Source of the DNA: Promethearchaeota archaeon
GTDB lineage: Archaea; Asgardarchaeota; Lokiarchaeia; Sigyniarchaeales; SOKP01
Length of the DNA: 64,000 nucleotides
Direction: 5' to 3'
Assembly (NCBI GenBank): GCA_030603385.1
Contig: JAUVXW010000008.1
Coordinates: forward strand, 1 to 64,000
Made by a program: the position numbers and the translations under genes. Under the pieces are notes generated by a model. The model had not been told where the DNA came from, ran no database searches, and saw only the letters and a program-made list of their open reading frames with translations. Of this stretch, positions 8,693-32,659 are shown piece by piece; the first letter of the stretch is position 1, and every line of letters starts with the position of its first letter.

Positions 8693-8945
8693 ATTATTGT
8701 TTATATAAAATTATCATATTTAAATCATTTTAATATAAGGAATTGAATTTTCGTATTTAGTCGAGGTTAACACTGAATCTTTGTGGTTCTATTGAATTAA
8801 ATGGTTTTATCTTGAACCCAATTCTCTTAACTTTTATTAATTTTCTCCTCGTTAAAAAAACAATTTATCATCTATTATCAAGGTTTTAGTTAAAACTTTT
8901 AAAAGGCATTTGAACTAATTAAATTTAAGAATATACCCCACTTTT

Positions 8946-9848
8946 TTGATTATAATGGTAAAAAAAATTGTATTTTCTGTAATTCAAAATCATGATATAA
9001 TTAAAAGAGTCATTACCAGACTTCAACTGGTAAAAACATTGAATTTGATACTCCATGATCCTACACAAGATTTTTTTTGCCTTTCCGATATGCCTCAGTC
9101 TTTTAAGAATGCTGATTTGATAGTTGTCAAGGTTAGAAATGAATGCTCAATTGATGTGCTGCATTTTGCTAAGCTCTATAATATTCCTACTCTCCATGAT
9201 GTAGATACAGTTTTAATATGCAAAAATAAAATTGCTCTTGACTATTCGCTAAGAACAGCATTAAAAAAACATGAAGATGCACTGGGAAAGTTTCTTATGC
9301 CCAATTCTTGGAACCAATCTTTAACAGATGTTAATAAATTTAAAGAATGGGCTCTTCCAAAATTGCCTATTGTTATTAAAAGTCATTATCAACATGATAA
9401 ATATAATAGATTTAATTTTCTCGCACAAGAAATTGATGACGTTGATAAATTCTGTGAAAGATATAATAAATTCTTATACTATGATGTCTATATTCAACAA
9501 TTTATTAAGTGCGATGGGTTTGAATATAAAATTTATGTAATTGGAGATAAGGTTTTTGGAATAAAAAGAGAGAATCCTATATATATATATTTAAGAGAAA
9601 AACCAGATAATATTGATGTAGGTTCGATTGAACGGGAAAAATTTGAAATTACAGAAGATATAATAAAACTCTCGAAAATATTATCAATGGAATTGAAGCT
9701 TAAAATTTTTGGTTTCGACTTTGTTAAGCCTATTGATCAAGAAAAATTATACCTCATTGATTTGAATGATTTTCCAAGTTTTAAAGGGATACCTAATATT
9801 GAAAATACGTTAAGTAGATTTATAGAAGACTATGTATTAGCTCTTTAA
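8946..9848 (+). CDS. ATP-grasp inositol phosphate kinase (ITPK1-like)
   Basis: LPIVIKSH, IQQFIKCDGFEYKIYVIGD, IFGFD, LIDLNDFPSFKGIP. Confidence 0.82.
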   Translation: MIIMVKKIVFSVIQNHDIIKRVITRLQLVKTLNLILHDPTQDFFCLSDMPQSFKNADLIVVKVRNECSIDVLHFAKLYNIPTLHDVDTVLICKNKIALDYSLRTALKKHEDALGKFLMPNSWNQSLTDVNKFKEWALPKLPIVIKSHYQHDKYNRFNFLAQEIDDVDKFCERYNKFLYYDVYIQQFIKCDGFEYKIYVIGDKVFGIKRENPIYIYLREKPDNIDVGSIEREKFEITEDIIKLSKILSMELKLKIFGFDFVKPIDQEKLYLIDLNDFPSFKGIPNIENTLSRFIEDYVLAL

Positions 9849-13487: not shown

Positions 13488-15020
13488 TTAAGATTTAGGT
13501 AATCTTATAATAAAGGTGGAACCTTGATTTCGTCCTTTTGATTCTACTAAAATCTTTCCCTCATGGAGTTCCACAATTTCTTTTGAGATATATAATCCAA
13601 GACCCGATCCTTCACTTTCTACATCAAAGCCCTTTCCATATCGTTCAATTTTACCAAATTTCTTAAACAAACCCTCTTTTTCTTTCTTTGTTAAACCGAT
13701 ACCATCATCTTTTATAGAAATCTTTATCCAAGAATCGGTCTCATTTAGAATTATATGGATCTCCCCTTTAGGAGGAGTGTATTTAATAGAGTTTGAAAGT
13801 AGATTAGTAATTACTTGGTCAATTTTGATTCGATCAATTATTACTTTAAGTTCTTTTGGTTGTTCAAAATTGATAATAATATTTCGTTGTTCAGCCCAAT
13901 ATTTTATATCACTAATACATTCATCTATTATTTCAACAATATTTTCATCTTGCAGATGTAAGCTTAATTTGCCAGATTCAACTATAGACACATCAAGTAG
14001 ATTTTCGATTAATAACTTTAGTCTTTGTCCCCCTCTATGAATCATCTCAACAAATTTTAAGGCATCTTCTCCAATTTGTTCCTTTAAAGTACTTAAAAGA
14101 AACTGAGAGGCTGCAGCAATAGAAATCAATGGTGTTTTAAGCTCGTGTGAGGCTGTTGTTATTAATTCACTTTTAATTTGATTTATCTCTAGTAGTTTCT
14201 TATTCTCATCAATAATAAGTCTTTCAGCATTTTTACGTTCTGTAATATCTCTAGAAATGATTAATGCTTTCTTTTTACCATCCAAATCAGTAAATGTCTT
14301 CCCTCTATTTTCTAACCATATATAATGTCCATCTTTATGTTTAACCCTCATTTCACTACTTCCTTCCCCAAATTTAAAACCATTTCTTAAAATCTTAGTA
14401 GCAGCTTTAATATCTTCTGGATGTAAAGGTTCTAATGGAGTCTTACCAATTATATCTTCACTTTTATATCCCAATATATTAAAATAAGCTTTTTCATTGA
14501 TATATTCATGTATTAGTTTTTCATTAATAATCGTAATTAAATCATTCGCATTTTCTAGGATTAGTTTGTATTTTTCTTCCGATTTCTCAAGTTTCTCTTC
14601 AATTTTCTTACGTTCAGTTATTTCTCTTGAAATTAAAATTGTTTTTAAAACACCATTTTGACTTGTAAAAAATTTTCCTTCTGTTTCTAACCAGATATAA
14701 TGTCCATCTTTATGTCTTATTCGAAATTGCTCTTTCACTTCTCCCCGCAATAACCCTTGTCTTATAGCTTTCGCAGCTCTAAGAAGATCATCCGGATGGG
14801 TGAACTCTCTTGGTTTCTTTCCAATAATCTCTTCTTCTGTATAGCCTAATGTATTAAAATACGCATTCTTATTAATGAATTCATGCTCAAAATTGTGATT
14901 TAAAATTGTAATTAAATCATTAGTATTTTCTATTATTAATTGGTATTTATCAAATGTATCTTCAATACCACCAGGGATATCCTTTAGATTGATTTCTGCT
15001 TTTCGTGGCATATATATCAC
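13488..15020 (-). CDS. Cytoplasmic PAS-PAS sensor histidine kinase
   Basis: Two PAS repeats (HPDD/HPED, HKDGHYIWLE, SR.ITERK); H-box ASHELKTPL; N, G1 (DDGIG), G2 (GSGLGL) boxes. Confidence 0.95.
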   Translation of the reverse strand: MIYMPRKAEINLKDIPGGIEDTFDKYQLIIENTNDLITILNHNFEHEFINKNAYFNTLGYTEEEIIGKKPREFTHPDDLLRAAKAIRQGLLRGEVKEQFRIRHKDGHYIWLETEGKFFTSQNGVLKTILISREITERKKIEEKLEKSEEKYKLILENANDLITIINEKLIHEYINEKAYFNILGYKSEDIIGKTPLEPLHPEDIKAATKILRNGFKFGEGSSEMRVKHKDGHYIWLENRGKTFTDLDGKKKALIISRDITERKNAERLIIDENKKLLEINQIKSELITTASHELKTPLISIAAASQFLLSTLKEQIGEDALKFVEMIHRGGQRLKLLIENLLDVSIVESGKLSLHLQDENIVEIIDECISDIKYWAEQRNIIINFEQPKELKVIIDRIKIDQVITNLLSNSIKYTPPKGEIHIILNETDSWIKISIKDDGIGLTKKEKEGLFKKFGKIERYGKGFDVESEGSGLGLYISKEIVELHEGKILVESKGRNQGSTFIIRLPKS

Positions 15021-17219: not shown

Positions 17220-18041
17220 ATGAAGTTAATGATAATCATGGATAATTATCAAAATTCTAAGGAAAACCCACTAGCAATGGAAATGCTAGGTATTGGTTTA
17301 GTTGAAATTTCACAAATAGATATAGAAGCTAAATTTAATGTGCTATTCCAGAAAGGAATAGGGGTACCACTTATTCAAAATATTATTGAATTATATAAAA
17401 AAGAAATTATTCATAAAAAGCAGGGGAATTCGATAATTCCCTTAGAAAAATTCACGATCTTTATTCACTATTTTGAAAATCACAATCATAATATATTAGT
17501 TATAATTTATATGGAAAAAAAAGATAGTTCAGTAAATTTTTCTAAGTTATATTTCTTATCGAGAAAAATAAATAGGAAATTTCAGTTAAATGAACCTGTC
17601 TCAAATATAATAGAAGATTTTGATACAGTTGTGGAAGTTCCCAGAACAGATGGGATCATAGCAATTTTTATTATAGGTTCAACAGGAAGTCCATATATAT
17701 CTAAAATTAATAAGGATAGATCTGAAATCGCAGATCATGAAGTTCACATAGGGGGTTTCATTTCTGCTTTATTATCATTTTCAAACACGATTATTGGAGA
17801 AGAAACTGGAGCAAAATTAAAAGAAATTAACTTTGGTAATCAACAATTCTATGTTATATCGAAGAGCAACGTGATTTTTGCTTTTTTGGTCGAAAACATG
17901 AACTCATTAATTCAAAGATACATGTACTTACTTGCTGACGAATTCCTCTACCAATTTAAGAATCGTATAAAAGACTTTAACGGGGATATAACCCCATTCA
18001 ACTGTTTTGAAGAAAAAATTAATCAATATTTTATAATATAA
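17220..18041 (+). CDS. Longin-domain protein (probably tandem longin-like)
   Basis: C-terminal IIAIFIIGSTGSPYI..., IGGFISALLSFS, LKEINFG, ADEF...F.....FNGDITPF..FEE: typical Asgard longin pattern. Confidence 0.75.
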   Translation: MKLMIIMDNYQNSKENPLAMEMLGIGLVEISQIDIEAKFNVLFQKGIGVPLIQNIIELYKKEIIHKKQGNSIIPLEKFTIFIHYFENHNHNILVIIYMEKKDSSVNFSKLYFLSRKINRKFQLNEPVSNIIEDFDTVVEVPRTDGIIAIFIIGSTGSPYISKINKDRSEIADHEVHIGGFISALLSFSNTIIGEETGAKLKEINFGNQQFYVISKSNVIFAFLVENMNSLIQRYMYLLADEFLYQFKNRIKDFNGDITPFNCFEEKINQYFII

Positions 18042-18059
18042 AAAAGAGGTATAAAGAAA

Positions 18060-18596
18060 ATGATTCAAGACCAGGAATATAAAGATATAAATCAAGTTTC
18101 CATCCTTATTTTTCAAATTGGATGGGAACAATTTGTTATTGACCTTCTTGATGTTAAAGAAATAATTCAAGCAGGACAAATAAGAAAATTGCCAAAAAGC
18201 TTAGATTACATAGATGGAATTTACAATTACAGAGGAGAGATAATACACGTCGTTAATTTGAAAAAGAAATTAAACTTGAATGAATACATGCTATATCGTT
18301 CTAAGAACTCCTCTACAGAAGAAGAAAATTACAGTAACACAAAGAGGTACATAATTATTCTAAAAGTGGATAATAACCTTATTGGATTTTATGTTAATCG
18401 CATCATAAACATTGATCACATCGATGTCAGCGAAATTATAGGACTAAGTCCAATATTTCAAACAAGTGTTGCTATGGAATACATAAAAGGAGTCATAAAT
18501 TTTAAAGAAAGACCAAGAATCATGCTTGATTTAGGCAAGATTCTTTACGAAGTTGAGAAATTTAAAATCCAACAAGATTTGTCATCTTTGACATAA
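18060..18596 (+). CDS. cheW: Chemotaxis coupling protein CheW
   Basis: VKEII, LP....YIDGIYNYRGEIIHVVNL, IGFYVNRI, YIKGV, IMLDL. Confidence 0.9.
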   Translation: MIQDQEYKDINQVSILIFQIGWEQFVIDLLDVKEIIQAGQIRKLPKSLDYIDGIYNYRGEIIHVVNLKKKLNLNEYMLYRSKNSSTEEENYSNTKRYIIILKVDNNLIGFYVNRIINIDHIDVSEIIGLSPIFQTSVAMEYIKGVINFKERPRIMLDLGKILYEVEKFKIQQDLSSLT

Positions 18597-18630
18597 AAAT
18601 AAATTTAAAATAAAAAATGGAGTTGATTAA

Positions 18631-19026
18631 ATGACAAACGAAAAACGTTCAGTATTGATTGTGGATGACGCCCAATTTACACGGAATATGCTAAAGAACA
18701 TCATTAGCAAGATTGAATTAATCGAAGTTATTGGTGAAGCTGCTAATGGTGTTGAGGCAATCTCCTTGTATAAAAAATTAAATCCTGATTTGGTTACTAT
18801 GGATTTAGTTATGCCAGAAAAGGGGGGTATTGAAGCAACAGAAGAGATCTTAAAAATTAATCCGAAAGCATTAATTGTAGTAGTATCAGCATTAGGACAA
18901 GAAGCTTTAGTCCTTGAAGCAGCAAAGAAGGGAGCAAAAGATTTTATTCAAAAACCTTTCAAGACTGAACAAATACTTGAGGTAATGGATCGTATACTAA
19001 AGAATAAGAAAGCTGTTAAAAAATAA
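18631..19026 (+). CDS. cheY: Response regulator CheY
   Basis: IVDDA, PDLVTMDLVMP (phospho-Asp), VVSA, FIQKPF; stand-alone receiver between cheW and cheA. Confidence 0.95.
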   Translation: MTNEKRSVLIVDDAQFTRNMLKNIISKIELIEVIGEAANGVEAISLYKKLNPDLVTMDLVMPEKGGIEATEEILKINPKALIVVVSALGQEALVLEAAKKGAKDFIQKPFKTEQILEVMDRILKNKKAVKK

Positions 19027-19054
19027 ATAGTAAATTAAATAATGGGGTGATTAA

Positions 19055-21139
19055 GTGGCATCTAACGACGATATTAAGCTTTTTATAAGTGAAGCAGAAG
19101 ATCTTATTCAAAAGACTGAGGATGAGATTCTTAATTTAGAAGAGAATCCAGAAAATCCTAAACCAATTCAGGCACTTTTTTTTACTTTTCACACGCTTAA
19201 AGGCCTTACAGCTATGGCTGGATTTGAAAACCTTTCAAAATTTTGTCATCACTTTGAAACCTTTTTAGATCATACTAAAGATAAAAAAGTATCAGCGAAA
19301 AAGCGTACAAACTTTATTGATATGCTATTTGAAAGTTTAGATGTGCTTCGTAATTTCATAAAAAAAGTAAAAAAAGGAGATTTAACAGATATTGATGATA
19401 GGTTTGTTGATGAAATAAAAGGAAGTTTCGATAATTTTGAAGCAGAATTCGAAATAACTTTTATCCAACCAATTTCTATAGATGAAATTACGAAAATATT
19501 AAGCAATAAGCAAAAAAAACCTTACAAAATATACATCCGCTTAGAAGATACATGCGTATTCAAAAAAGTAAGATTATTTATCATTTTTCGAGCCTTGAAT
19601 GGAATTGGTCGAATTTGTTGGACTAATCCAGCTCCGGAATCTTTAGAAAAAACAATTTTGAAGAATGAATTTGAAATCTTTTATATTAGTCAAAAAAATA
19701 AACCTGAAATTTCTCAAGTTTTAGACGAGATTTTAGAAATTGAGAATATAGTTGTTTCAACATTAAAACCTCAGGAATTTAAAAGCATAATTGCAGATCT
19801 TAAGGAAAAATGGGAGAATGAACAAGCAGAAACAGCGAGCCAAGAAATTGAGGAAGAAAGCATATATGAAGAGGTATTAATTGATGAAGGTCTTGAGCGA
19901 GTTAGTAATATTGTAGAAGATTACTCGGATAAAAGCGTTAAAATTACAAGTGTAAAAGTAAACATTGAAAATATAGAGGAATTAATGAATTATTTTGGAG
20001 AACTGGTGATAATGAAAAATCATATCAGCCAACTTTTAAAAGATAAACATGATAGAGCAATAAATAGGCTTTTTGATAAAATGGACAAACCCTTTTTAGA
20101 TATTCAAGAAATACTTTTTAAACTGAAGTTGGTTAGAGTTGAATCAACTTTTAGAAAGTATAAAAGGCTTGTTCGAGATGTAGCAAACGAAACAGGTAAA
20201 AAATTAAGACTGATTTTACAAGGAACAAATGTAGAGATTGACAGAAAGATATTAGAAGAACTAAATTCTCCTTTCGTTCATTTAATACGAAATGCTATTT
20301 CTCATGGCATTGAATTACCAAAAGAAAGAAAGAGAAAAGGTAAGAATGAACTAGGAATTTTAAGGTTAAAAACATACAGAAAAGCAGGTTCTATCTATAT
20401 TGAAGTACAAGATGATGGGGCGGGTATAAATTATGACAAAATCAAACAGAAAATCGTTAAGAAGGGTTACTATGATCGTGAAGAAGTTAAAGAATTAACT
20501 AATGAAGCTTTGAATAAATTTATTATAATGCCCGGATTTTCAACTTTATCTGATGCTGATATAATTTCAGGAAGAGGAATGGGACTGGCTATAGTTGCTG
20601 AGAAGATAAAAGAATTAGGAGGGGATTTTCTTATTGAATCGCAAAAAGATACTGGAACTAAAATTACTTTGGTAGTTCCTTTTACAAAGGCAATACTAAG
20701 AGCACAATTATTACAAGTTTCAGAGGATTTATTTGCTATTCCAACTGAGAATATTAAACAAATATATTTCTTCAATCAATATAAAATAGAATACGTAGAA
20801 GGCAAACAATATTATAAAATAGATTCAAAACTAATACCTGTAATTTTCTTAGACCAACACTTAAGAATGGTTGATCTAATTGATACAAATTCTCATAAAA
20901 AAATAGCTGTATGGTGCCAAAAAGATGAGGATAATTCTGCTATACTTGTTGCAGATAAACAACTTCAACAATTAGATGTAGTTGTGAAGCCGTTTACATC
21001 AAGTTATTCTGATTCTCGTGATATTTTGGGATCTACAATTACTGGAGAAGGTTCAATTTGTCTCATCCTAGATGTATTGAACATTATATCAAGACAGTCA
21101 TCTGAATATGAAATATCTTTAATAAATAAAATAAATTAA
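19055..21139 (+). CDS. cheA: Chemotaxis histidine kinase CheA
   Basis: Hpt FHTLKG, P2-like region, dimerisation GELVI, HLIRNAISHGIE, DDGAG, PGFST, SGRGMGL, C-terminal CheW-like P5. Confidence 0.96.
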   Translation: MASNDDIKLFISEAEDLIQKTEDEILNLEENPENPKPIQALFFTFHTLKGLTAMAGFENLSKFCHHFETFLDHTKDKKVSAKKRTNFIDMLFESLDVLRNFIKKVKKGDLTDIDDRFVDEIKGSFDNFEAEFEITFIQPISIDEITKILSNKQKKPYKIYIRLEDTCVFKKVRLFIIFRALNGIGRICWTNPAPESLEKTILKNEFEIFYISQKNKPEISQVLDEILEIENIVVSTLKPQEFKSIIADLKEKWENEQAETASQEIEEESIYEEVLIDEGLERVSNIVEDYSDKSVKITSVKVNIENIEELMNYFGELVIMKNHISQLLKDKHDRAINRLFDKMDKPFLDIQEILFKLKLVRVESTFRKYKRLVRDVANETGKKLRLILQGTNVEIDRKILEELNSPFVHLIRNAISHGIELPKERKRKGKNELGILRLKTYRKAGSIYIEVQDDGAGINYDKIKQKIVKKGYYDREEVKELTNEALNKFIIMPGFSTLSDADIISGRGMGLAIVAEKIKELGGDFLIESQKDTGTKITLVVPFTKAILRAQLLQVSEDLFAIPTENIKQIYFFNQYKIEYVEGKQYYKIDSKLIPVIFLDQHLRMVDLIDTNSHKKIAVWCQKDEDNSAILVADKQLQQLDVVVKPFTSSYSDSRDILGSTITGEGSICLILDVLNIISRQSSEYEISLINKIN

Positions 21140-21202
21140 ATTTTTTTTTAAAAAATAAATAAAAAATTTCACTGAATTAATAAAAATTTGGAGGAAAAAG
21201 AA

Positions 21203-23212
21203 ATGGGTTTTAAGAAGGTTAACCAAGACGAATTAAAAACAAATGGTGGTCCAAGTTTTCTCGGTATGCCTATAAGAGAAGTAGGAAAGATAGTACAAAC
21301 TAAAAAGAGAGAGAAAAAAATTGATTCAAGTTCACTTGGCTCAATCTCAGAGATATTGATACTTAATGAAGAATTTTTAGAATATCAATTTCATGACAAT
21401 GGGAAAAGGAAAGCTTTAGCAGGCTATGGAAACATAGTAGTTTTTAACAACTCACTTAAAGATAGAATTTGGGATACTTTTTTAAAATTTACAGGAACTC
21501 AATTTGATAATCAGGATTCAGAAAAAGGTATGCATTTGGTAATTTTTGAACCCAATTCAAATAAAATTTTGAAATATGAAATTGTAAATTCAGAAATATT
21601 ACCTGATTTAGTAACTGTAAATGAAAGTATAGAAAATTTGAACCAAGACATTAAAAATGTAAAGAATAGTGATTTTGAGGAAGAAAACACAATAAATGAT
21701 AATCAAATAAATCATATGTTGCTATTAGGAATAGAAAATAAAGTAAAATTTTCTATATCAGTAGAAAATGTTTCTTCCACAATTCTAGAAAATGTAAAAC
21801 TAAAAAAACAATTCTCAAATAATTTCTATGATTTAGATTTTAAAGGTTCATTGAGTAAAGACATTGAAATTACTAACAATTACATTGAATACCCTGTTAA
21901 GAATCTAAATCCCGGAGAGAAAGTAGAAATAATTCTTCTTGCGAACATATTTCCAAAAAAGAAAGAAAATATCAAGACTGGGAGAATAGAAGTATCATTT
22001 AATTTGAAGAATCAAACTATTTCAGAAGTAGAAATCAACCATTTCTCTGCTTATTCTCATGCTATGCATGCTATTAGAAAAACAGAGAAAGAATTTGCTC
22101 CTAATCAATGGGATTGTTCTTTAGTATTCGGAAATCATAGCGATTTTAAGATGAAATTAAATTCAATTCTAATTTTAGATAAAACTAAAAAGAATAAACT
22201 ATTAGAACTTGATTTTAGTGATAAAGTGGTAATGATGGCTCCAGGAGAGAGCTATGAAACAGAGCATTTTGATTATCAAGATGAAGGAGAACCAACTTTT
22301 TCAAGAAAAGTAGATTATTCAGTAGATTACAAAGTTGAGAAAAATTCTATGATTACAGTTCAAGTTGAAGATAATATGTTTAAAGTTGCTAATGCGATTA
22401 TCAAAAAGAAAATTGCTGAACGGGAAATTAAGTCATTTGAAGAATCAAAAGTTAATACAGAGTTCATAGTGAATAATCGAGGCACCATGCCAATAAAGGG
22501 AATTATTGCTAAAGAAAGAATACCTGCAGACTTTTTACCACCAAGGGAAGTCTCAAATTTTAAATTCCTAAATTCTTCTGGGGAATTAAAACTTGAGGAT
22601 ATATATTTAAGAATTAGTCCTGATGATGACGATCCAACACACGAGCACGTTTTAGAATTGAATGTTAATTTGGAAACTAATCACGGGAGTACTCTAATAG
22701 GAGTAGATGACTTTTTAGAAGTTAAATACCCTTTAACTGCTGTAACTCCAAATTATGAAAATCATTATGAGTTTCCATTAGAGATACAATCTTATTATTC
22801 GAAATTTTTAGAGTCTGAGCTAGAGGAATATTATGTAATCACTAATAATATCGCTGATATGGAAAAATCCTCTCTAAAAGTTACTCATAAACGTCGTAAA
22901 ATAATGATAGGAAAGGAAATCTTCCCTGGAAGAAGCAGCAATGAGTTTGCAATTTATATCACTGCAAAAAATGGTTCAAACATAAAATTATCAGATGTGA
23001 GTGTCACTGATACATTTCCAGATTCATTTGAATTAGTTTCTTCAAATATTGACCATAAACTTAGTAAAGTTGATAAGTCAGGAGAGCGTAGAATATCTTT
23101 TAGTCTTGATATTTTACAACCATATCAAGAAAGAGAGATAATGTACTATTTAAAAAACATTGCAGGAAAGGAGATTAGATTTTCAGAATTAGAATCATTT
23201 TTTATTGGTTAA
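21203..23212 (+). CDS. Cytoplasmic multi-beta-sandwich (Ig-like/DUF11-like) protein of unknown function
   Basis: Repeated N.S...L..V.V.D/E..P..F and L.PGE patterns; no signal peptide or TM; GGAGG at 21190 supports ATG 21203. Confidence 0.65.
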   Translation: MGFKKVNQDELKTNGGPSFLGMPIREVGKIVQTKKREKKIDSSSLGSISEILILNEEFLEYQFHDNGKRKALAGYGNIVVFNNSLKDRIWDTFLKFTGTQFDNQDSEKGMHLVIFEPNSNKILKYEIVNSEILPDLVTVNESIENLNQDIKNVKNSDFEEENTINDNQINHMLLLGIENKVKFSISVENVSSTILENVKLKKQFSNNFYDLDFKGSLSKDIEITNNYIEYPVKNLNPGEKVEIILLANIFPKKKENIKTGRIEVSFNLKNQTISEVEINHFSAYSHAMHAIRKTEKEFAPNQWDCSLVFGNHSDFKMKLNSILILDKTKKNKLLELDFSDKVVMMAPGESYETEHFDYQDEGEPTFSRKVDYSVDYKVEKNSMITVQVEDNMFKVANAIIKKKIAEREIKSFEESKVNTEFIVNNRGTMPIKGIIAKERIPADFLPPREVSNFKFLNSSGELKLEDIYLRISPDDDDPTHEHVLELNVNLETNHGSTLIGVDDFLEVKYPLTAVTPNYENHYEFPLEIQSYYSKFLESELEEYYVITNNIADMEKSSLKVTHKRRKIMIGKEIFPGRSSNEFAIYITAKNGSNIKLSDVSVTDTFPDSFELVSSNIDHKLSKVDKSGERRISFSLDILQPYQEREIMYYLKNIAGKEIRFSELESFFIG

Positions 23213-23257
23213 ATTAAATTATTTAAAAAAAAAGAAGAAAAAACTGGAGGAAAAATA

Positions 23258-24109
23258 ATGAATTTACAGTTTTATGAAACAATACAAGATAAGTCAAAAA
23301 AATATTTGACATATCTAATTGACCAGATACTACCAAAATTCACAATCGGTGAATTTAAGTATTTTTTAGAAGATTTAACAAATAATACCACTAAAACTAG
23401 TAAAGGAACTAAGGGACAAAAGACTAAATCAACAGAGGAATTTATTAAAATCGGAGATGATGGTGGAAAATTTGCAGAATTATCAAAATTAGATGAAAGC
23501 CAAAGAAAAATACTATTTCAAATTTTCATTAGTAGGGAAGTAAATGACAAAATGGCAGTAAAATGGCGTTTTTATCAATATATAAAATATCACTTAGGCC
23601 TGAATATAAAAACTGTAAAGGTTAATAGGGCATCTAAACATTTTGTTGATTTCATTATTGAAACAGATGAAAAAGAAATAATATTTGTTTCATGCCATGA
23701 TATTTTGGAATTAAATAGATTTAAAGAGGTTTTAAATCAAACAGCTGAGTTTGCTAAGAAACAAAATTTATCCCCTAATAGAATCATTTTTTCTGCTTGT
23801 AAATCATTTCGAAACATACCCATTGAAGAATCATTCAAAATCGGCAATACAGAGATAACTCCAGAGTTGTGGATCGAATGGATTGAAGAAAATCTCCCTT
23901 ATGATAGAGAGGATCTTTTAATAGTCAATAACTCAGAGTTAAAGTTAGCAGGATTTAACTTCACAAGTACAGAAGATTTACTTAATTACATATACCATAG
24001 TTCAAATGGTGGTCAAATTTCAATTTTTAAACAATCAGATTTTTTTACTGAAGCCTCTGATAATGAAGCTGAAATAGAATTAGTCTGGAAAGGAATTATG
24101 ATAAAATAA
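23258..24109 (+). CDS. Hypothetical protein in che cluster
   Basis: 283-aa ORF with GGAGG upstream, co-oriented within the cluster. Confidence 0.75.
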   Translation: MNLQFYETIQDKSKKYLTYLIDQILPKFTIGEFKYFLEDLTNNTTKTSKGTKGQKTKSTEEFIKIGDDGGKFAELSKLDESQRKILFQIFISREVNDKMAVKWRFYQYIKYHLGLNIKTVKVNRASKHFVDFIIETDEKEIIFVSCHDILELNRFKEVLNQTAEFAKKQNLSPNRIIFSACKSFRNIPIEESFKIGNTEITPELWIEWIEENLPYDREDLLIVNNSELKLAGFNFTSTEDLLNYIYHSSNGGQISIFKQSDFFTEASDNEAEIELVWKGIMIK

Positions 24110-24141: not shown

Positions 24142-26121
24142 ATGATAGAAAGTGAATATGAAAATTTAGAATATGAAGAAAATATAACCGCTGTCATTTT
24201 AAAAGTTCAAGATGAGAAATACCTTATCGAAGTTGAAAAAGTTAAAGAGATATATGTACCTGGAGAATCTATAATTCCAGTACCATTATCAGAAAAATCA
24301 ATTGTAGGAGTTATTAACATCAGGGGAGAAATTTATTCAATTATCTCATTAAAGCATAATATCTATGAAGATAGTGTAGATTATGCCTTAAATGACTATT
24401 CAAGGATTTTACTCTTAGAATGGGGAGACTTAAATATTGCCTTACTAGTAGACTCTGTAATCGGTGTAAGAGAATTTCCAATTTCAATTTTTAAACAGCA
24501 AGGTACAATTGTAAAAACTAATATAGATTTTAAATTTATAAAATTAACAGGTGTTTTTCAAGATGAACCACTTATTCTTTTAGATTTAGGTGCTTTAATC
24601 CAACCTTATACTAAGACTTTCGAAAGAAAAATAGAAAAGAAAACTGAAACAATCCCAATAGTCCCTGAAAAACCAAAAGTTGTACCTAAAAAAGCTAAAA
24701 AGCCTAAAGAGCCTGAAATAAGTCATATAGAATCTACGGTCATTATCCCACAATCACCTAAAATGCCAAAATTAACAAAGATTCCTAATGATGCAAAAGT
24801 TGTATTATCAGCTGAACAACAAGATACCCTTAAAGAAATGGGGAATATAGGAACAGGAAATGCGGTTACAGCATTATCTCGATTGATCAAAAAGAAAATC
24901 GATGTAACTCTTACAGATGTAGGAATTATATCTTTTGATCAACTAGTTGATCAATTTGGAGGACCTAAGGAGCGTGTTTGTGGAATTTTTTGTCATATAG
25001 ATGAGCCTTCGCAATCGACCATCTTGAACATATTTGATATGAAACCTTTAATGAGTCTAATCGCATCTTTAGCAGGAAAAAAATCAAAGATAGATCCTAA
25101 TAAAGTAAAATCCAAAAAAGACCTTGATGAATTCGCAATTTCAACAATTACTGAAATGGGAAACATTATGGCGGGGCACTATGCATCTGCATTAGCAGAT
25201 TTATTAGAAACTAAATTAATGATCGATATACCAGAGTTTGCTATGAGCAATGCCGGAGAGTTAGGAGAATTTCTCTCTCAAGAACTTAAATCTATTGCTG
25301 AATTTATATTAATAATTAAAACTTCTATAAATATATCTGAATTAAAGTTAAAAGGTATTTTCTTTTTAATCCCAGACATTAAGACTTTAAATATGTTTTT
25401 CAATAAACTTGGAATTGATCATGATTTACATGTTGAAAATTTAGTGGATAATCAAGAACCTAAACTATTAGATGTTGATAAGTTGAAACTCACAGAACTT
25501 CAGAGAGATGCTTTACAAGAGGTTGGAAATATAGGCGCTGGCAACGCAGCGAACGCCTTAGCTCAAATGATTAATAAAAGAGTTGACATTAATATTCCAT
25601 CAGTAGAGATGATAGAATTAGATGACTATGCGAAGAGGATCAGTAAAAAGGATGAAAAACTTCTAGTTGCATGGAGCAATATTGTCGGAAAGACGAGAGC
25701 TACAGTTCTTACGATGTTTAATATTAAAGATGCAATTGACATAACTTCAATAATAGTTGATGATCCTGGTAAAAAGAAAATTGATTTAAGAAAAGCAATT
25801 GAAAAGGCAGATGATTTTCCAGAGCTTTATAAAAGTGCTGTCTCAGAATTGGGACACATTTTAGGAAGCCATTATGTTAGTGCAATAGGAGACCTATTAG
25901 GGATACGATTAATGACTGAACCTCCTGATATCAGTGTAGATAAACCTACAGGTTTATTTAACATATTAAAAGAAGAAATTGGGCTCTTAAAGAAGTTATC
26001 TTTAGTAATTACCACAAGTGTTATTATTAAAGATATTGAAATTGTAGGTACGTTCCTATTCATTCCAAGTCTCGATACTCTACAAAATCTTTTAGATGCC
26101 TTATTAAATTTCTACTCTTAA
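24142..26121 (+). CDS. CheW-CheC-CheC fusion protein
   Basis: N-terminal CheW (VGVINIRGEI, ALLVDSVIGV), Pro/Lys linker, CheC motifs DTLKEMGNIG, TITEMGNIM, DALQEVGNIG, AVSELGHIL. Confidence 0.9.
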   Translation: MIESEYENLEYEENITAVILKVQDEKYLIEVEKVKEIYVPGESIIPVPLSEKSIVGVINIRGEIYSIISLKHNIYEDSVDYALNDYSRILLLEWGDLNIALLVDSVIGVREFPISIFKQQGTIVKTNIDFKFIKLTGVFQDEPLILLDLGALIQPYTKTFERKIEKKTETIPIVPEKPKVVPKKAKKPKEPEISHIESTVIIPQSPKMPKLTKIPNDAKVVLSAEQQDTLKEMGNIGTGNAVTALSRLIKKKIDVTLTDVGIISFDQLVDQFGGPKERVCGIFCHIDEPSQSTILNIFDMKPLMSLIASLAGKKSKIDPNKVKSKKDLDEFAISTITEMGNIMAGHYASALADLLETKLMIDIPEFAMSNAGELGEFLSQELKSIAEFILIIKTSINISELKLKGIFFLIPDIKTLNMFFNKLGIDHDLHVENLVDNQEPKLLDVDKLKLTELQRDALQEVGNIGAGNAANALAQMINKRVDINIPSVEMIELDDYAKRISKKDEKLLVAWSNIVGKTRATVLTMFNIKDAIDITSIIVDDPGKKKIDLRKAIEKADDFPELYKSAVSELGHILGSHYVSAIGDLLGIRLMTEPPDISVDKPTGLFNILKEEIGLLKKLSLVITTSVIIKDIEIVGTFLFIPSLDTLQNLLDALLNFYS

Positions 26122-26183
26122 ATTTATTCTTTTCTAAAAATATATTTAATATATTTTTTTTTTTAATTTTAAGAAAATTTATT

Positions 26184-26196
26184 GAAACTTTTAATA
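26184..26196 (+). promoter_or_regulatory. Putative BRE/TATA promoter for the second half of the che cluster
   Basis: GAAACTTTTAATA about 35 nt before ATG 26231, preceded by a T-run (about 26154-26164) that could terminate the upstream unit; similar AAACTTT(T/A)A motifs precede other genes (about 676, 8893, 31274). Confidence 0.4.
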
Positions 26197-26230
26197 AGTA
26201 TTTTCAAGCCTAAAAAAAAATGAACGAATT

Positions 26231-26785
26231 ATGTTAAAAACTGGCTATTATGATTATATATATAAAGTAGATGGAGAGAAAATAAAATTAAAACCAGAAA
26301 AGATTTTTGATGCTTCAGGAGTATATTTAATCGTAGATAAGGAGTTAAAACTCATATGGATTTGGTCGGGCAGTCATTCTCGTTTATTTCATAGATATAT
26401 GGCTGCGAATTGGGCCGGGAAATTAAAAACTAAAAAAAAATTCTATAATTTCAAGTATGAAGTAATTAAACAAGGGCTAGAACCCTCTGAATTCAGGATA
26501 ATTTATAAAGAAATCAAAGAAAATAGAACGGATTTAACATATCCAGGTCAATCGAGAAAGGATTCAATTAAAAGTAAACCGTTAGAGGAATATGTCTCAA
26601 GAACTTCGACTACTCGAATTAAAACAATGGATTTGCTTTCAGATAGCATTGTAATATCCAAATCTGATAAATCTAGAATAAAAAAAATATTAGTTGAAAT
26701 AAAGGAAATGCAAAGCCACATCAAATATTCTATTGAACATATTCAACAACGTTTTACTGTAATTGAAAAAATATTAGGAAGATAG
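26231..26785 (+). CDS. Single-domain gelsolin-like protein with C-terminal coiled coil
   Basis: FDASGVYLIVD....IWIWSGSHS....R..A...A......VIKQGLEPSEF is the gelsolin-repeat pattern. Confidence 0.75.
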   Translation: MLKTGYYDYIYKVDGEKIKLKPEKIFDASGVYLIVDKELKLIWIWSGSHSRLFHRYMAANWAGKLKTKKKFYNFKYEVIKQGLEPSEFRIIYKEIKENRTDLTYPGQSRKDSIKSKPLEEYVSRTSTTRIKTMDLLSDSIVISKSDKSRIKKILVEIKEMQSHIKYSIEHIQQRFTVIEKILGR

Positions 26786-27828
26786 TGAGTTCAAAATTGA
26801 TCAAAATTGAAAATATTCAAATGGATGGAGATTATTATTCTTTACTGCTTGAATATTTGAGCAATAAAACAGGATTAAATTTTGAATATTATCGTAGGAA
26901 TTTTGTGGAGAGAAGATTAAAAGCAAGAATGATTCGTGTAAATTGTAGCACTCTTCATTCTTATTATTATTATGTTAAGGGTAATATCCTTGAGATTGAG
27001 AAATTCTTAGATAGTTTTAACATTAATTATTCTTGTTTTTTTAGAAATTGGGAAGTTTTTCAACAATTTGAAAATTTCTTTTTAAAATGTTTAGACTATA
27101 AAAAAAAAGACATTCTTACTAATTTAAAACCAAAAAGTAAAAAGGGTTCTATAAAGAAATCTAGAGACTCGTTAAAAAATATAGAGAATTCAGAAAATAG
27201 AAGTTCATATAGAAAATTAATGACTATAAGATCTCAAAATGCGCTTGAATTTTCTGAAAAAACATCTTTATATAGAAAAATTAATGGTACTTCAAGATCG
27301 AAGGGAATTGTAAATATCTGGTCTTGTCCTTGTGCTTCTGGTGAAGAACCCTATTCGATTGCAATAATTTTAGATAATTTAAAAAAACAGATACCTGAAT
27401 TTCCTCAATTTAAGATTATCGCATCAGATATAGATAAAGATGCTATTAATAAAGCACACATTGGACTTTATAATGAAAATGTCATGCAAGAAATTTCAAG
27501 ATTCAACGAAGGGAATTATTTTATAATAGCTGAAAATAGATTTGGTAATAGATACTTAATCAATGAAGATGTTAAGAGATATGTTGAATTTATTGAGGAA
27601 GATATCACAAATGGACATAAAAAAACCAAGAAATATGATATAATATTTTGTCGATATCTTTTAATTTATATAAGTCGAGAGGCACGAAATAACTTCTTGG
27701 ATATTATTGAAAAACAATTAAATCCTGGTGGGTTATTAATTTTAGGTAAAACTGAAACCCTATTTAATTCATACAACACACTGAAATTAATTGACTCTCG
27801 TAATCATATTTATTTAAAAATCAATTAA
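26785..27828 (+). CDS. cheR: Chemotaxis methyltransferase CheR (with basic insertion)
   Basis: TGLNF..Y.....RRL..R, FFRN, IWSCPCASGEEPYSIA, ASDID, DIIFCRY, GGLLILGKTETL. Confidence 0.93.
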   Translation: MSSKLIKIENIQMDGDYYSLLLEYLSNKTGLNFEYYRRNFVERRLKARMIRVNCSTLHSYYYYVKGNILEIEKFLDSFNINYSCFFRNWEVFQQFENFFLKCLDYKKKDILTNLKPKSKKGSIKKSRDSLKNIENSENRSSYRKLMTIRSQNALEFSEKTSLYRKINGTSRSKGIVNIWSCPCASGEEPYSIAIILDNLKKQIPEFPQFKIIASDIDKDAINKAHIGLYNENVMQEISRFNEGNYFIIAENRFGNRYLINEDVKRYVEFIEEDITNGHKKTKKYDIIFCRYLLIYISREARNNFLDIIEKQLNPGGLLILGKTETLFNSYNTLKLIDSRNHIYLKIN

Positions 27829-27846: not shown

Positions 27847-28992
27847 ATGTCAATCAAAGTATTACTTGCCGAGGATTCCGCATATCAAAGAAAAGTTATT
27901 GCTGAAATGATTACATCTAATGAGGAAATTGAAGTCATAGATGTTGCTAAAAACGGAAGAGAGGCAATTCAGAAGATTGGAGAGCATAATCCTGATGTAA
28001 TTTTATTAGATCTTATAATGCCTGAAGTCGATGGATTATCTGTTCTCAAATTCCTTTCAGAACATTATCCAATTCCGACAATTGTTTTTACAGGTCTTAA
28101 ACTTGAATCTTTGGATGATTCTGTTCAAGCACTACTTTTGGGTGCTTTTGACTTTATCATAAAACCAAGTGGCTATTGGGCAGAGGAATTTCCTAAATTT
28201 AAAGAAAAGCTGATTTCTAGCATTCTATATGCTGGTAAAATAAAAAAAACTTATGAAAAACGTAATACGCTAATAAAAGAATCAATTGATACTCAATTCA
28301 ATTTGGATATTGGTAAAAAGCAAAAAGTTACTAAAAAGAGTTTAAAACCAATAACAGTTGAAGTTCCGAAAATAACTTCATTAGATATAAAAAAATTTAA
28401 ATCTAATATTATAGTAATAGGGACTAGTACTGGAGGCCCTAGAACCCTAAAATCTATTCTGAAAAAGATTCCAAAAGATTTTCCTAGTCCTATTTTAATG
28501 GTGCAGCATCTAGATGCCTTTTTTATGAAGCAACTTGCTAAGTCATTAAATGACGTCTGTGAAATTGAAATCAAAATCCCCGTAAATGGTGAAAAAATTC
28601 AATCTGGAAAAGTATACCTTAGCCCCGGAGCTAATCATATGCAAGTCGTTTTGCGAAATAATATACCTTGCATCAAAATTTTTAAAGGGAAACCTGTAAA
28701 TTTTTGTATGCCATCCGTAGATGTATTATTTTTTTCAACGGCAGAAGTTTATAAACAACATACGATGGGTATACTTTTAACAGGATTAGGGAATGACGGC
28801 GCTGCGGGTCTAGATGCTATTAAATCAGCTAAAGGAAACACAATCGTCGAATCTGAAGAAACATGCGTCGTATATGGTATGCCAAAAGCGGCTGTGAAAA
28901 TAGGTGCTGCTAAACAAGTTCTCCCGAGCTATAAAATCTGTCAGGAAATTACCCGATTCGCTAGGAAATTTTCTATTGAACTTAACAACTAA
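27847..28992 (+). CDS. cheB: Chemotaxis methylesterase CheB (REC + esterase)
   Basis: REC (AEDS, DLIMP, KP); catalytic GTSTGGP, VQHL, LTGLGNDG, VYGMP. Confidence 0.95.
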   Translation: MSIKVLLAEDSAYQRKVIAEMITSNEEIEVIDVAKNGREAIQKIGEHNPDVILLDLIMPEVDGLSVLKFLSEHYPIPTIVFTGLKLESLDDSVQALLLGAFDFIIKPSGYWAEEFPKFKEKLISSILYAGKIKKTYEKRNTLIKESIDTQFNLDIGKKQKVTKKSLKPITVEVPKITSLDIKKFKSNIIVIGTSTGGPRTLKSILKKIPKDFPSPILMVQHLDAFFMKQLAKSLNDVCEIEIKIPVNGEKIQSGKVYLSPGANHMQVVLRNNIPCIKIFKGKPVNFCMPSVDVLFFSTAEVYKQHTMGILLTGLGNDGAAGLDAIKSAKGNTIVESEETCVVYGMPKAAVKIGAAKQVLPSYKICQEITRFARKFSIELNN

Positions 28993-29011
28993 CTAAATAG
29001 GTAGTTTGAAA

Positions 29012-29560
29012 ATGATCGAGGACACCCAAATAGGTAAAATTGTAGATATAGACAAAAAAGGTGTTATTAATTTACCTATAGGTCATTTTGTTATTGTAAA
29101 TAGTAAACATAGATTAAGTAATTTATATCCAAAACTCTCTATTTATGGATTAGGTTCATGTATAGCTTTAATTCTCTGTGATTATGTTCATAATATTTGT
29201 GGAATGTCTCATATTTTGCTTCCCAAAACTACAAAGAAAATAATAAAATATCCTCATAAGTTTGCTAATTTGTCTGCTAAGCTCTTAATGCAAGAATTAA
29301 TAAATCATGGTGCTAAGAGAGATAATATAAAGGCAATTATCGTAGGAGGTTCAAGGATCTTTGATTTAGATGATAATATTATGGGAGTTGATAATATAGG
29401 ATCCATTAAAGAAGAATTGAATAAATTGAAAATAGAAATTATTAAAGAAGATACAGGTGGATCTAAAGGGAGAATTGTTATTTTTGATTCTAAAGATTTT
29501 TCCTTATATTTTAAATCAACTGGTCAAAACGATTTCAATAAATTTACAAATTCAAAATAA
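29012..29560 (+). CDS. cheD: Receptor glutamine deamidase CheD
   Basis: GLGSCIA, GMSHILLP, KFA, AIIVGG, EDTGGSKGR. Confidence 0.93.
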   Translation: MIEDTQIGKIVDIDKKGVINLPIGHFVIVNSKHRLSNLYPKLSIYGLGSCIALILCDYVHNICGMSHILLPKTTKKIIKYPHKFANLSAKLLMQELINHGAKRDNIKAIIVGGSRIFDLDDNIMGVDNIGSIKEELNKLKIEIIKEDTGGSKGRIVIFDSKDFSLYFKSTGQNDFNKFTNSK

Positions 29561-29592
29561 AAAAAATTAGAAAATGAAAAGAGAAACTAATA

Positions 29593-30267
29593 ATGAAAAG
29601 AAATAATAATAACGATAAGCAACCGGGTGAGTTTAAACTAACCCCAGAACAAATAGATACGTTAAAGGAACTAGGAAATATTGGTTCCGGACATGCAATT
29701 ACGGCCCTTTCAAAATTACTAAACAATGAAATAGAAGTTTCCCTAACATCTGCCGATATTATTCCTTTTTGGAAAGTTCCTGAATTGTTCGATACTCCTA
29801 ATGTTGAAGTATTTGGGATCTATTCTAAGATTCCATTCAATTCAGATTTATCAATAATTCAAATATTTACTAAAGAATCACTTGTTAATTTAATTAATCT
29901 CCTTAACACTAATGATAAGGTTTTCATTGAAAATATAAGAAATATCGAGGATCTAGATGATTTTTCTATTAGTATAATAACTGAAATTGGTAATATATTA
30001 ACTGGACATTATGCAAGTGCTTTGGCAGATATACTATCAACTCAACTAATTCCTAATGTTCCAATCGTAGCACTAGATACATTAAACGCGATGTTAAATG
30101 GTATCATTGCTAAATATTCTCAACTATCAGATTATTTAGTACTAATAAAAACTAAAATAGCACTACCAGAAATTAAACTGAATTGTATAATGTGTTTTAT
30201 TCCTTGTATGAATATACTAAAAAATCTATTTAAAATTTTAAATATAAAATATAATATGAATCTATAA
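29593..30267 (+). CDS. cheC: CheY-P phosphatase CheC
   Basis: DTLKELGNIGSGHAITALSKL and SIITEIGNILTGHY. Confidence 0.93.
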   Translation: MKRNNNNDKQPGEFKLTPEQIDTLKELGNIGSGHAITALSKLLNNEIEVSLTSADIIPFWKVPELFDTPNVEVFGIYSKIPFNSDLSIIQIFTKESLVNLINLLNTNDKVFIENIRNIEDLDDFSISIITEIGNILTGHYASALADILSTQLIPNVPIVALDTLNAMLNGIIAKYSQLSDYLVLIKTKIALPEIKLNCIMCFIPCMNILKNLFKILNIKYNMNL

Positions 30268-30273
30268 TAAGAA

Positions 30274-31233
30274 ATGTCAAGATTAACCATATTAGAAGAA
30301 TTGCTTTCCAATCTATTAAATGAGGCAAAAGACCTTTCCGCAGCTCTAGTTGTTGACTTAGATGGTTTGATTATTGCTAAAAAGTCAAATGGTGGGTTTG
30401 ATGAAGAATTGATTGGTGCTATTATGGGCATTCTTGAACAAACAATAAGTAGGATAAAAAAGTATACAGAAACATCATTTGGAAGTGGAACACTCAACAC
30501 TAATGAATTTCAATTATTTTATGTAGAATTAAGTAAAGTCACTCCCGCAATCTTTGTCATGGTTGGAGATCAATACTCAAACATTAATCAATTTATTCCT
30601 TATGCATATATAGTGACGGAAAAAATTTCATTAATTTTAAATAATCGAGAAACCCCTGTAAATCTCCCAAAATTAAGTAATACTGCAGAAATAATATTTA
30701 ATCCAGACCCTAATGTCCATTATGGCAATAATAATATAAATAAGATAGTTGTTGTTGGATCTGAGGCAGTTGGGAAAAGTACATTAGTTGAAATGTATAG
30801 GAAGGGAAAATTTGAAGAAATTTATAAACCAACTATTGGAATTTCTATTAAAGAGAAAAAATTACATATTTCCAAAGACTACAATTTATGCCTATATCTC
30901 CTTGACTTAGGAGGTCTAAAAAGTTTTGCTAAAATCCGCAAATTTTATTATAATTATTCAAATGCGGTTCTCATTTTGTTTGATTATGCTAAAATGGAAA
31001 CTTTCAATAAAATTTCTGATTGGATTGAAGAATCGCGCCATTTTATCAAAGATAAATCAATCCCAATTGTTCTCATAGGAAACAAAATCGATCTAGCCGA
31101 AAATCGTGAGGATTTTAAGATTCAAGCCCAAAATCTAGCAGACCAATATAATATTCCATTTTTTGAAACATCAGCATATACTGGAGAGGGAATTGATGAG
31201 TTGTTTACTTACTTAATATCATCCTTACTTTAA
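30274..31233 (+). CDS. Roadblock/LC7 - Rab-like small GTPase fusion
   Basis: N-terminal AALVVDLDGLIIA roadblock; G1 GSEAVGKST, G2 PTIG, G3 DLGGL, G4 NKID, G5 ETSA. Confidence 0.92.
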   Translation: MSRLTILEELLSNLLNEAKDLSAALVVDLDGLIIAKKSNGGFDEELIGAIMGILEQTISRIKKYTETSFGSGTLNTNEFQLFYVELSKVTPAIFVMVGDQYSNINQFIPYAYIVTEKISLILNNRETPVNLPKLSNTAEIIFNPDPNVHYGNNNINKIVVVGSEAVGKSTLVEMYRKGKFEEIYKPTIGISIKEKKLHISKDYNLCLYLLDLGGLKSFAKIRKFYYNYSNAVLILFDYAKMETFNKISDWIEESRHFIKDKSIPIVLIGNKIDLAENREDFKIQAQNLADQYNIPFFETSAYTGEGIDELFTYLISSLL

Positions 31234-31294
31234 CATTTAAATAAGTATAAATTACAGTGCACTACTATTTATTAAACTTTTAAGGGAGATTTAG

Positions 31295-32659
31295 TTGTCA
31301 ATCGATGTTATAATTGCTGATGATTCTGCGTATTTGAGAAAAAATATTGCTGAGATTCTTAAAGGCAGCGAATTGGTAAATATAATAGAGTTTGCTAAAG
31401 ATGGAGAAGAAGCCATTAAGTTTGTCAAGAAATACAGCCCAGATGTTTTAGTGTTAGATTTATTAATGCCTAAAATGAATGGATTAGATGCTTTCAAAGT
31501 GATCATGGAAGAATGTCCAACCCCAACAGTTATTCTCTCAGCTATTAGTCCCAAAAACCTTGATTCATCTATTCAAGCACTTTTAATGGGGGCATTTGAT
31601 TATATTATAAAACCGGGAGGCATAGGTGCTAAAGATCTACCACGATTCCGTGAAGAATTACTAGCTAAAGTGCTTATAGCTTCTCAATCACAAATAAAAA
31701 AAATTTTTAAAAAGGAAGATGGAGACTACGGAAAGGGTAAATCACTTCGACAAGAAATAATTGATCAAATCTTTGATTTTGGTCAATACCTAAATACACT
31801 AATACCCATTCAAGAAGCTAAGGAAAACCAAGAAGTAATAGACATTGGTAAAACAAAAGAAGTGCAGAAAGAGGCAACAGGTAAATCAGAAATAAAGCAA
31901 ATTGAAAAGATAAATGAACTGAGCATAAAGAAATCCATTAAGCATAAAGAATCAGCAAAACTATCTAAAATAAATGTTGCTAAACCTACTTTAAAAACTT
32001 TATTACAAAAATCTCTACCAAGTTTACAAAAAAGAAAAGAACCAGTTTACACTCCTAACCTTACTCCTATTAAAGGAGTTTCTATCTCATCAAATATAAT
32101 TGTTATTGGTGCTAGCGTTGGTGGGCCTCGAACTATAACTACTATATTAAAAGAAATACCTAGAAATTTCCCTGCTCCAATTTTAATCGTTCAACATTTA
32201 TCAGCACACTTTATGGAAGCTTTTGCTGATAATTTAGATTTGGAATGTAAATTAAAAATTAAGGTTGCGACTAATGGAGAGTATCTTAAACCTGGAGTAG
32301 TCTATATTGCTCCCGGAGAAAAACATATGGAAATTTCTGTAGATGATAAAAGACCTTGCATAAAAATATATAAGGGTACACCAGTTAAATTTTGTATGCC
32401 TTCCATAGATATCTTATTCTTTTCAGCAACAAGAGTTTACAAGGATCGAACCATGGGGGTATTATTAACCGGTATGGGCTCTGATGGTGTTGAAGGTTTA
32501 GGCTCTATTAAAAAAGTAGGTGGAAAAACAATCACAGAATCGATGGAGACATGTATTTTATTTGCTATGCCAAAATTCGCCGCAGAAAAGGGTTATGCTG
32601 ATCAAATTCTGCCAAATTACTCCATCTACCCGGAGATTATTAAATTCTGCAGAAAATGA
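31295..32659 (+). CDS. cheB: Second CheB methylesterase with long linker
   Basis: REC (ADDS, DLLMP, KP); GASVGGP, VQHL, LTGMGSDG. Confidence 0.93.
   Translation: MSIDVIIADDSAYLRKNIAEILKGSELVNIIEFAKDGEEAIKFVKKYSPDVLVLDLLMPKMNGLDAFKVIMEECPTPTVILSAISPKNLDSSIQALLMGAFDYIIKPGGIGAKDLPRFREELLAKVLIASQSQIKKIFKKEDGDYGKGKSLRQEIIDQIFDFGQYLNTLIPIQEAKENQEVIDIGKTKEVQKEATGKSEIKQIEKINELSIKKSIKHKESAKLSKINVAKPTLKTLLQKSLPSLQKRKEPVYTPNLTPIKGVSISSNIIVIGASVGGPRTITTILKEIPRNFPAPILIVQHLSAHFMEAFADNLDLECKLKIKVATNGEYLKPGVVYIAPGEKHMEISVDDKRPCIKIYKGTPVKFCMPSIDILFFSATRVYKDRTMGVLLTGMGSDGVEGLGSIKKVGGKTITESMETCILFAMPKFAAEKGYADQILPNYSIYPEIIKFCRK

Follow-up and report, generated by a model that had tools for sequence, protein, structure and literature searches.

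A protein with a gelsolin fold is encoded within a che gene cluster of a Lokiarchaeial genome, and our analysis revealed that this protein, which we call GelX, is tied strictly to the Che system. We regard it as an even call whether GelX is a dedicated subunit that couples the Che system of archaellum-less Lokiarchaeia to actin. The DNA analyzed, hereafter the window, is a stretch of 64,000 nucleotides from a Promethearchaeota archaeon (assembly GCA_030603385.1, contig JAUVXW010000008.1), and GelX is our own label for the product of the open reading frame at 26231-26785 on its forward strand.

The GelX gene (26231..26785, +; 184 aa, with the stop codon included in the coordinates) was defined from the open reading frame and its translation, from its homologs and from an AF2 model. 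The reading frame is a real gene: a homolog search returned 197 proteins of ~180 aa that share the start methionine and are 48-97% identical, all of them from Lokiarchaeia/Promethearchaeota metagenome bins. Proteins 84-89% identical to GelX bear the phylum labels Hodarchaeota, Thorarchaeota, Hermodarchaeota or Promethearchaeota within a single submission series of NCBI bins, and not all of these labels can be correct. The AF2 model of GelX has a mean pLDDT of 80.5 and a folded domain at residues 6-100, composed of strands at 10-14, 17-20, 31-36, 41-46 and 75-80 and of helices at 52-65 and 86-96. The family consists of two conserved modules with a variable linker between them, the mean column identity being 0.82 in the core, 0.28 in the linker and 0.74 in the C-terminal helix. 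The gelsolin/ProGel-type domain (residues ~4-100; 26240..26530, +), delimited by Foldseek, VIA-align, the profile comparison with the PDB and invariant columns, is followed by a YPGQSR motif (residues 104-109; 26540..26557, +), in which P105, G106, S108 and R109 are invariant in a 30-sequence alignment but substituted in the 42%-identical ortholog P0253. The variable linker (residues 114-142; 26570..26656, +) is predicted to be disordered, with pLDDT below 50 over residues 114-139. The first-pass annotation, made from the sequence alone, had quoted a gelsolin-repeat pattern followed by a linker and a coiled coil, and all of these were recovered: VYLIVD lies at residues 31-36, IWIWSG at 42-47 and QGLEPSEF at 81-88 of the translation, and the AF2 model shows a disordered stretch at 114-139 and a helix at 144-183 with coiled-coil-like heptads.

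Gelsolin (PF00626) is the sole Pfam match of GelX, at 13.6 bits, which is under the cut-off of 21 bits. The best match in a phmmer search of the PDB with GelX was 7c2f, the Thorarchaeota ProGel (E 2.8e-4); Thor 2DGel3, Heimdall 2DGel and villin ranked next. When a profile of 30 GelX orthologs was compared with the PDB, 7c2f was matched at E 2.6e-7, 2DGel3 at 1.9e-5, Heimdall 2DGel at 1.5e-4, villin at 1.8e-4 and CapG at 1.1e-3, and Loki 2DGel was additionally recovered. The Foldseek comparison that had been proposed as a check on the gelsolin assignment returned gelsolin domains, with 7c2f_B as the top match to the AF2 model (E 1.8e-6) and 47 chains at E <= 1e-3 with a probability of 1.00, all of those listed being gelsolin-family domains. 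Structural alignment with VIA-align gave Z 12.1 and an rmsd of 2.1 A over 85/88 residues against actin-bound ProGel, and Z 10.7 against Lokiarchaeota 2DGel; the best 50 matches, at Z 9.5-12.1, are all actin-binding gelsolin-family domains. The model has the five-stranded mixed sheet of the gelsolin superfamily, packed between the long (52-65) and the short (86-96) helix, and several positions of the long helix of ProGel are retained. D36, W45 and G47 are invariant in the 30 orthologs and constitute the D...WxG motif, which distinguishes gelsolin from cofilin (Akil et al. 2020, PMC7444086). Based on the homology to PDB entries, the matches of the AF2 fold and the invariant motif, the gelsolin call is sound, and the gelsolin-like identity proposed at first reading was upheld both by sequence and by fold. 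The gelsolin fold is present also in proteins without known actin binding, for example Sec23.

When GelX is aligned with the first domain of Thor 2DGel3, G30 takes the place of the Asp in the GD motif and H54 that of the Glu in the long helix; this Asp and this Glu we take to be the type II Ca2+ ligands of gelsolin. Position 30 is occupied by G, D, E, A or S across the GelX family, while position 54 is His in 29/30 sequences, and ProGel also lacks both ligands. The first-pass annotation had pointed to a glycine in front of the first core strand and concluded that Ca2+ control may be lost. The glycine is indeed G30, where Thor 2DGel3 has the D of GD, and the replacement of both type II side-chain ligands supports the suggested loss at the level of sequence. 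Judged by this alignment, GelX lacks the type II site of calcium-regulated gelsolins such as 2DGel and eukaryotic gelsolin. According to published work, 2DGel binds Ca2+, ProGel has no Ca2+ sites and 1DGelX, a Thor protein, acts independently of Ca2+ (PMC7444086).

The second conserved module is the C-terminal amphipathic helix (residues 143-184; 26657..26782, +), which was recognized from the AF2 helix, its conservation and the heptad count. Residues 144-183 are modelled with pLDDT 79-93, hydrophobic residues occupy 9/12 of the a/d heptad positions, Q161, Y166 and K180 are invariant, and H163, I164, K165, S167, H170, I171 and R174 are nearly so. This helix is a candidate docking or oligomerization module. 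A search with residues 138-184 returned GelX orthologs only, the genome of the window contains no copy of the helix besides GelX itself, and none of the 130 matches of an exhaustive profile search is a fused (Rosetta-stone) form of GelX. One protein, P0211 (139 aa), looked like a pilin-like N-terminus joined to the GelX helix in front of cheR, i.e., like evidence for a modular helix. Over residues 48-139 it shares 85% identity with a full-length GelX ortholog (residues 95-186), while residues 1-47 match a pilin-like family, the named members of which come from Bathyarchaeia. The 746-nt metagenome scaffold that encodes it (L024) has a pilin-like 5' part, then the 3' two-thirds of a GelX gene and then cheR, and is most likely a chimeric assembly, so P0211 was discarded.

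The che cluster of the window runs on the forward strand. Its upstream half (17220..24109), assigned by Pfam and arranged as in relatives, encodes a 273-aa protein, CheW, CheY, CheA, a DUF11-type protein of 674 aa and a 283-aa protein; a gene for a CheW-CheC-CheC fusion protein of 659 aa (24142..26121; Pfam) comes next and adjoins GelX. Downstream of GelX lies cheR (26785..27828; Pfam, with N-terminal and DNA alignments; start at GTG 26785 or TTG 26797), and after it CheB, CheD, CheC, a Roadblock-Ras GTPase fusion and a second CheB are encoded (27847..32659; Pfam). In 39/41 genomes with GelX, the gene follows the fusion gene on the same strand at a distance of 35-200 nt, and in the remaining 2/41 both GelX and the fusion gene stand at contig ends. 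The slot behind the fusion gene is unchanged in orthologs diverged to 42% identity. G067, a closed genome, has its cluster in two parts, and GelX together with the fusion gene is located ~1.1 Mb from CheA. The gene after GelX is usually cheR; in L001-3 it is a 68-aa CheR remnant next to an intact GelX, in L005/6 a Roadblock-Ras gene with no cheR, and in L004 an unrelated gene on the opposite strand. Since GelX keeps the fusion gene where cheR is missing (L004, L005/6) and where the cluster is split (G067), its conserved partner is the fusion gene and not cheR.

Several other members of the cluster were characterized. The linker between CheW and CheC in the fusion protein (residues ~160-225) is rich in Pro and Lys. 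The DUF11-type protein (21188-23212, +; L004:2874-6938; L006:1632-6968) is encoded directly behind cheA and is present in every cluster variant, that of G006 included, with lengths from 673 to 1778 aa, and the 283-aa protein (23258-24109, +) has counterparts of 39-65% identity in six other loci. Both are more universal members of the cluster than GelX and are equally good candidates for an output or adaptor component. The 283-aa protein could not be recognized as an adaptor by its fold: its AF2 model reaches a pLDDT of 72, the Foldseek matches were all weak and restriction-endonuclease-like (E >= 8e-3), and Atlas gave weak PDDEXK leads only. A longin reading of the first gene (17220-18041) was rejected as well, as it has no Pfam match and falls into an unnamed Promethearchaeota cluster of its own in Atlas; the nearest named Atlas clusters, Roadblock/Fuz_longin at 0.83, are a lead only. 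One lineage encodes a CheR-CheD fusion of 705 aa with a coiled-coil insert of ~300 residues rich in Lys, Glu and Gln (L005:14938-17055, -). A second CheC-bearing family of 395-401 aa, with an unannotated N-terminal domain and one CheC domain, is encoded outside the main cluster (L025:2571-4530 in G033:C129; L027:811-1998 in G030:C117), and in G033 it is followed by a small Ras-like GTPase of 177 aa.

Further genes of the window lie outside the cluster. A PAS-PAS histidine kinase (13488-15020, -) is encoded upstream of it, and at 7601-9848 a myo-inositol-1-phosphate synthase adjoins an ITPK1-like ATP-grasp kinase. A giant protein of 2235 aa (45054-51761, +) has only weak Ig-like, NEW3 and ASH matches close to its C-terminus. 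A 788-aa protein (54435-56804, -) matches E3_UFM1_ligase (E 6.6e-15), DDRGK (1.6e-14) and PCI (1.9e-21), and it looks like a UFL1/DDRGK1-like eukaryotic signature protein.

The junction between GelX and cheR had been described at first reading as a TAG stop overlapping a GTG start, with the two genes translationally coupled. The overlap itself is present, as the TAG at 26783-26785 shares its G with the GTG at 26785-26787 in the cheR frame, and the conserved N-terminus of CheR starts at residue 4 of this reading. However, a TTG at 26797, 12 nt downstream of the GTG, aligns with the GTG start of cheR in two relatives, where that start is 11 nt past the gelsolin stop, so the junction in the window is either -1 or +11 nt. 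Tight junctions of -4 to +11 nt are common, being found in the window, G067, L001, L030, L024 and the P0131 contig, but such close spacing does not hold throughout the family: L023 has a gap of 138 nt, and cheR is missing behind GelX in L004 and L005/6. On its other side, GelX is preceded by an AT-rich spacer with a conserved T-run (26122..26230, +; alignment of five loci). With 109 nt it is the largest gap of the cluster, its length in the five loci is 94-119 nt, and neither the spacer nor the cluster matched Rfam at E <= 1. An internal promoter or a terminator-like signal may lie in this spacer. The first-pass annotation has GelX heading a probable second transcription unit, but the break in the G067 cluster precedes the fusion gene and not GelX. 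In G067 the unit must consequently begin upstream of the fusion gene, and the claim is unproven.

We examined the distribution of GelX across 400 Asgard genomes, 161 of the class of the window (Lokiarchaeia) and 239 of other classes, with thresholds of E <= 1e-25 for GelX orthologs and E <= 1e-130 for CheA of the window type. GelX was detected in 41/400 genomes, all of them in the class of the window, and in 0/239 genomes of the other classes. Window-type CheA is encoded by 47/161 genomes of the class and GelX by 41 of these 47, while none of the 114 class genomes without this CheA has GelX (0/114); the genomes counted are related and hence are not independent samples. Within genera the two proteins occur in the same genomes, namely the same 2/42 in g12, the same 4/10 in g11 and the same 5/7 in g13, and GelX is lost together with the che cluster inside genera, for example in g12. 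Six genomes have the CheA and no GelX. Five of these six are explained by assembly cuts at contig ends, as in G076, where the contig ends 148 nt past the fusion gene. In the sixth genome, G006, the cluster is well assembled but contains no GelX, and CheW and CheC are encoded by separate genes; as the same cluster type exists there without it, GelX is not a universal output. The exhaustive profile search, covering 1.84 billion representatives, yielded 15 GelX clusters at E <= 1e-30, all of 127-205 aa. A weaker-scoring paralog class with the same domain-linker-helix architecture is found also in CheA-negative genomes; the Che link is thus a property of the GelX clade only. The genome of the window itself has such a gelsolin-linker-helix paralog of 182 aa (G000:C36:44183-44731; L010:1408-1956), located without che context next to a 303-aa ORF, and this may be a generic form ancestral to GelX.

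The genome of the window, which is 94% complete, contains no archaellin and no ArlD/E. No CheF (PF04283) match over the cut-off was found in it, only a sub-cut-off fragment, and T2SSE gave one marginal match of 25.7 bits. Across the class, G016 was the only genome in which archaellin scored over the cut-off and G011 the only one for CheF, and each of the two carries only a distant CheA of ~30% identity; in genomes with window-type CheA, archaellin or CheF was found in 0/47. The genome of the window has four actin-family genes and two MCPs, and ~10 other places in it match the gelsolin profile, weakly or strongly. Type IV filament systems are described as rare among Asgard archaea in a 2026 survey, which credits L. 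ossiferum with an archaellum. In the L. ossiferum paper, chemoreceptor arrays were imaged, and che genes and eight gelsolins were listed separately. Since an archaellum is encoded there, the imaged arrays may be of the classical Che type and have no direct bearing on GelX.

Single-domain Asgard gelsolins, including one with a gelsolin domain and a coiled coil, have been described and assayed by Akil et al. 2020 (PMC7444086), and GelX is a new, Che-dedicated variant of these proteins; our literature searches found no paper connecting gelsolin with che clusters. The closest known relative is ProGel (PDB 7C2F, Thorarchaeota; PMC7444086), which shares 24% identity with GelX and, like it, has a single prototypical gelsolin/cofilin domain. 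ProGel binds rabbit actin only weakly, with a Kd of ~337 uM (PMC7444086). However, ProGel is a bare domain of 94 aa with no reported link to che genes, whereas GelX adds the linker and a conserved helix of 40 residues and is found only in che clusters. Thor 1DGelX belongs to the same architecture class, with one gelsolin domain and a C-terminal coiled-coil region; its severing and nucleation of actin do not depend on Ca2+ (Akil et al. 2020, PMC7444086), and activity of this kind is what the first-pass annotation predicts for GelX. On gels 1DGelX migrates close to actin and so must be much larger than the 184-aa GelX, and no che context has been described for it. Eukaryotic gelsolin, villin and CapG (PF00626) share the fold and have weak but significant profile similarity to GelX. 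They contain three to six domains, in contrast to the single domain of GelX, which is under the Pfam cut-off and without the type II Ca2+ ligands.

On the side of signalling, CheF, the archaeal adaptor between CheY-P and the archaellum switch, takes the same logical place as the one proposed here for GelX, that of an archaea-specific connector between the Che pathway and a machine. The two proteins have no relation in sequence or fold, and the GelX-type system is without CheF. ParC and ParP, which position chemosensory arrays in Vibrio, set a precedent for Che-like systems whose placement depends on cytoskeletal or polarity proteins. The Frz pathway of Myxococcus, acting on MglA/MglB, offers a precedent for a Che-like pathway that acts on a polarity module and not on a rotary motor (PMC3441718), and the Roadblock-Ras fusion of the GelX cluster is a further point of similarity. 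Frz with MglA/MglB and ParC/ParP are nevertheless different proteins and involve no actin or gelsolin.

Given the fold, the genomic context and the missing motor, we propose the following arrangement for GelX as a coupling subunit. The gelsolin domain is predicted to bind Lokiactin, as ProGel binds actin, and to do so without calcium control. The conserved C-terminal helix would dock GelX on a Che component or oligomerize it there, and its likeliest partner would be the CheW-CheC-CheC fusion protein encoded directly upstream, the CheW domain of which should sit in the receptor array. Arranged in this way, GelX would give the chemosensory array and its CheY-P phosphatase a physical connection to actin filaments. 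The first reading, of an actin capping or severing effector controlled by Che instead of calcium, is thereby supported in part: the gelsolin domain, the missing Ca2+ ligands and the tie to Che are borne out, whereas capping, severing and control by CheY-P would be predictions. Actin binding, the helix partner and an effect of CheY-P are what we infer for GelX, and the helix could also be a simple dimerizing coiled coil, as in the paralog outside the Che system. Within the coupling model, an output branch, in which local capping or severing changes with the signalling state, is somewhat likelier than passive anchoring of the array, because the full set of adaptation enzymes is kept while no output is known. 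The stronger version, in which an MCP-CheA-CheY pathway with full adaptation enzymes steers the actin dynamics of Lokiarchaeia directly through a gelsolin of its own, is in our estimate possible, though it falls well short of an even chance.

The main alternative, conceivable if rather unlikely, is that GelX is a Che accessory without a role in actin, its gelsolin fold having been turned to binding other proteins; it might, for instance, regulate or partner the CheC domains, or act in the manner of CheF as an adaptor between CheY-P and another effector. The strict linkage of GelX to a gene with CheC domains would fit such a role, as would a domain divergent enough to be under the Pfam cut-off, a core that is very strongly conserved together with its family-specific long helix, and the presence of the ~10 other gelsolin-profile matches, which could serve actin. 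Against it, the closest relatives of GelX in both sequence and structure are all actin-binding gelsolins, and GelX retains D...WxG and several long-helix positions of ProGel. The position in front of cheR suggests yet another function, that GelX is co-translated with CheR and mainly linked to adaptation, modulating receptor methylation or localizing CheR and CheB. We consider this improbable: the tight junctions found in six of the loci speak for it, but cheR does not follow GelX in L004 and L005/6, only a remnant of CheR accompanies the intact GelX in L001-3, and the gap in L023 is wide. Least probable of all, in our view, is that GelX is an ordinary actin regulator whose place in the che cluster is accidental or reflects shared regulation, without a physical or signalling link. 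Asgard genomes are rich in gelsolins, as the eight genes of L. ossiferum illustrate, so a chance location has some plausibility; yet GelX is never found without a window-type che cluster in the class or in the other Asgard genomes, it is lost with the cluster inside genera (in g12 it persists in the same two genomes as CheA), and in G067, where the cluster is split, it travels with the fusion gene.

Complete che clusters are present in many Lokiarchaeia, and neither archaellin nor CheF was found in genomes with this cluster type; as a gelsolin-fold protein that comes, goes and relocates with this very Che type, GelX offers a concrete candidate for what such pathways control. If actin coupling should fail, GelX would still be a clear case of a gelsolin fold reused outside actin biology. 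If signalling does steer actin through GelX, then together with the Roadblock-Ras GTPase of the cluster it would represent prokaryotic sensing that drives a eukaryote-like actin response, such as the growth or steering of protrusions. In Lokiarchaeia without a swimming organelle, GelX is a candidate for connecting sensing of the bacterial style with a eukaryote-like actin skeleton.
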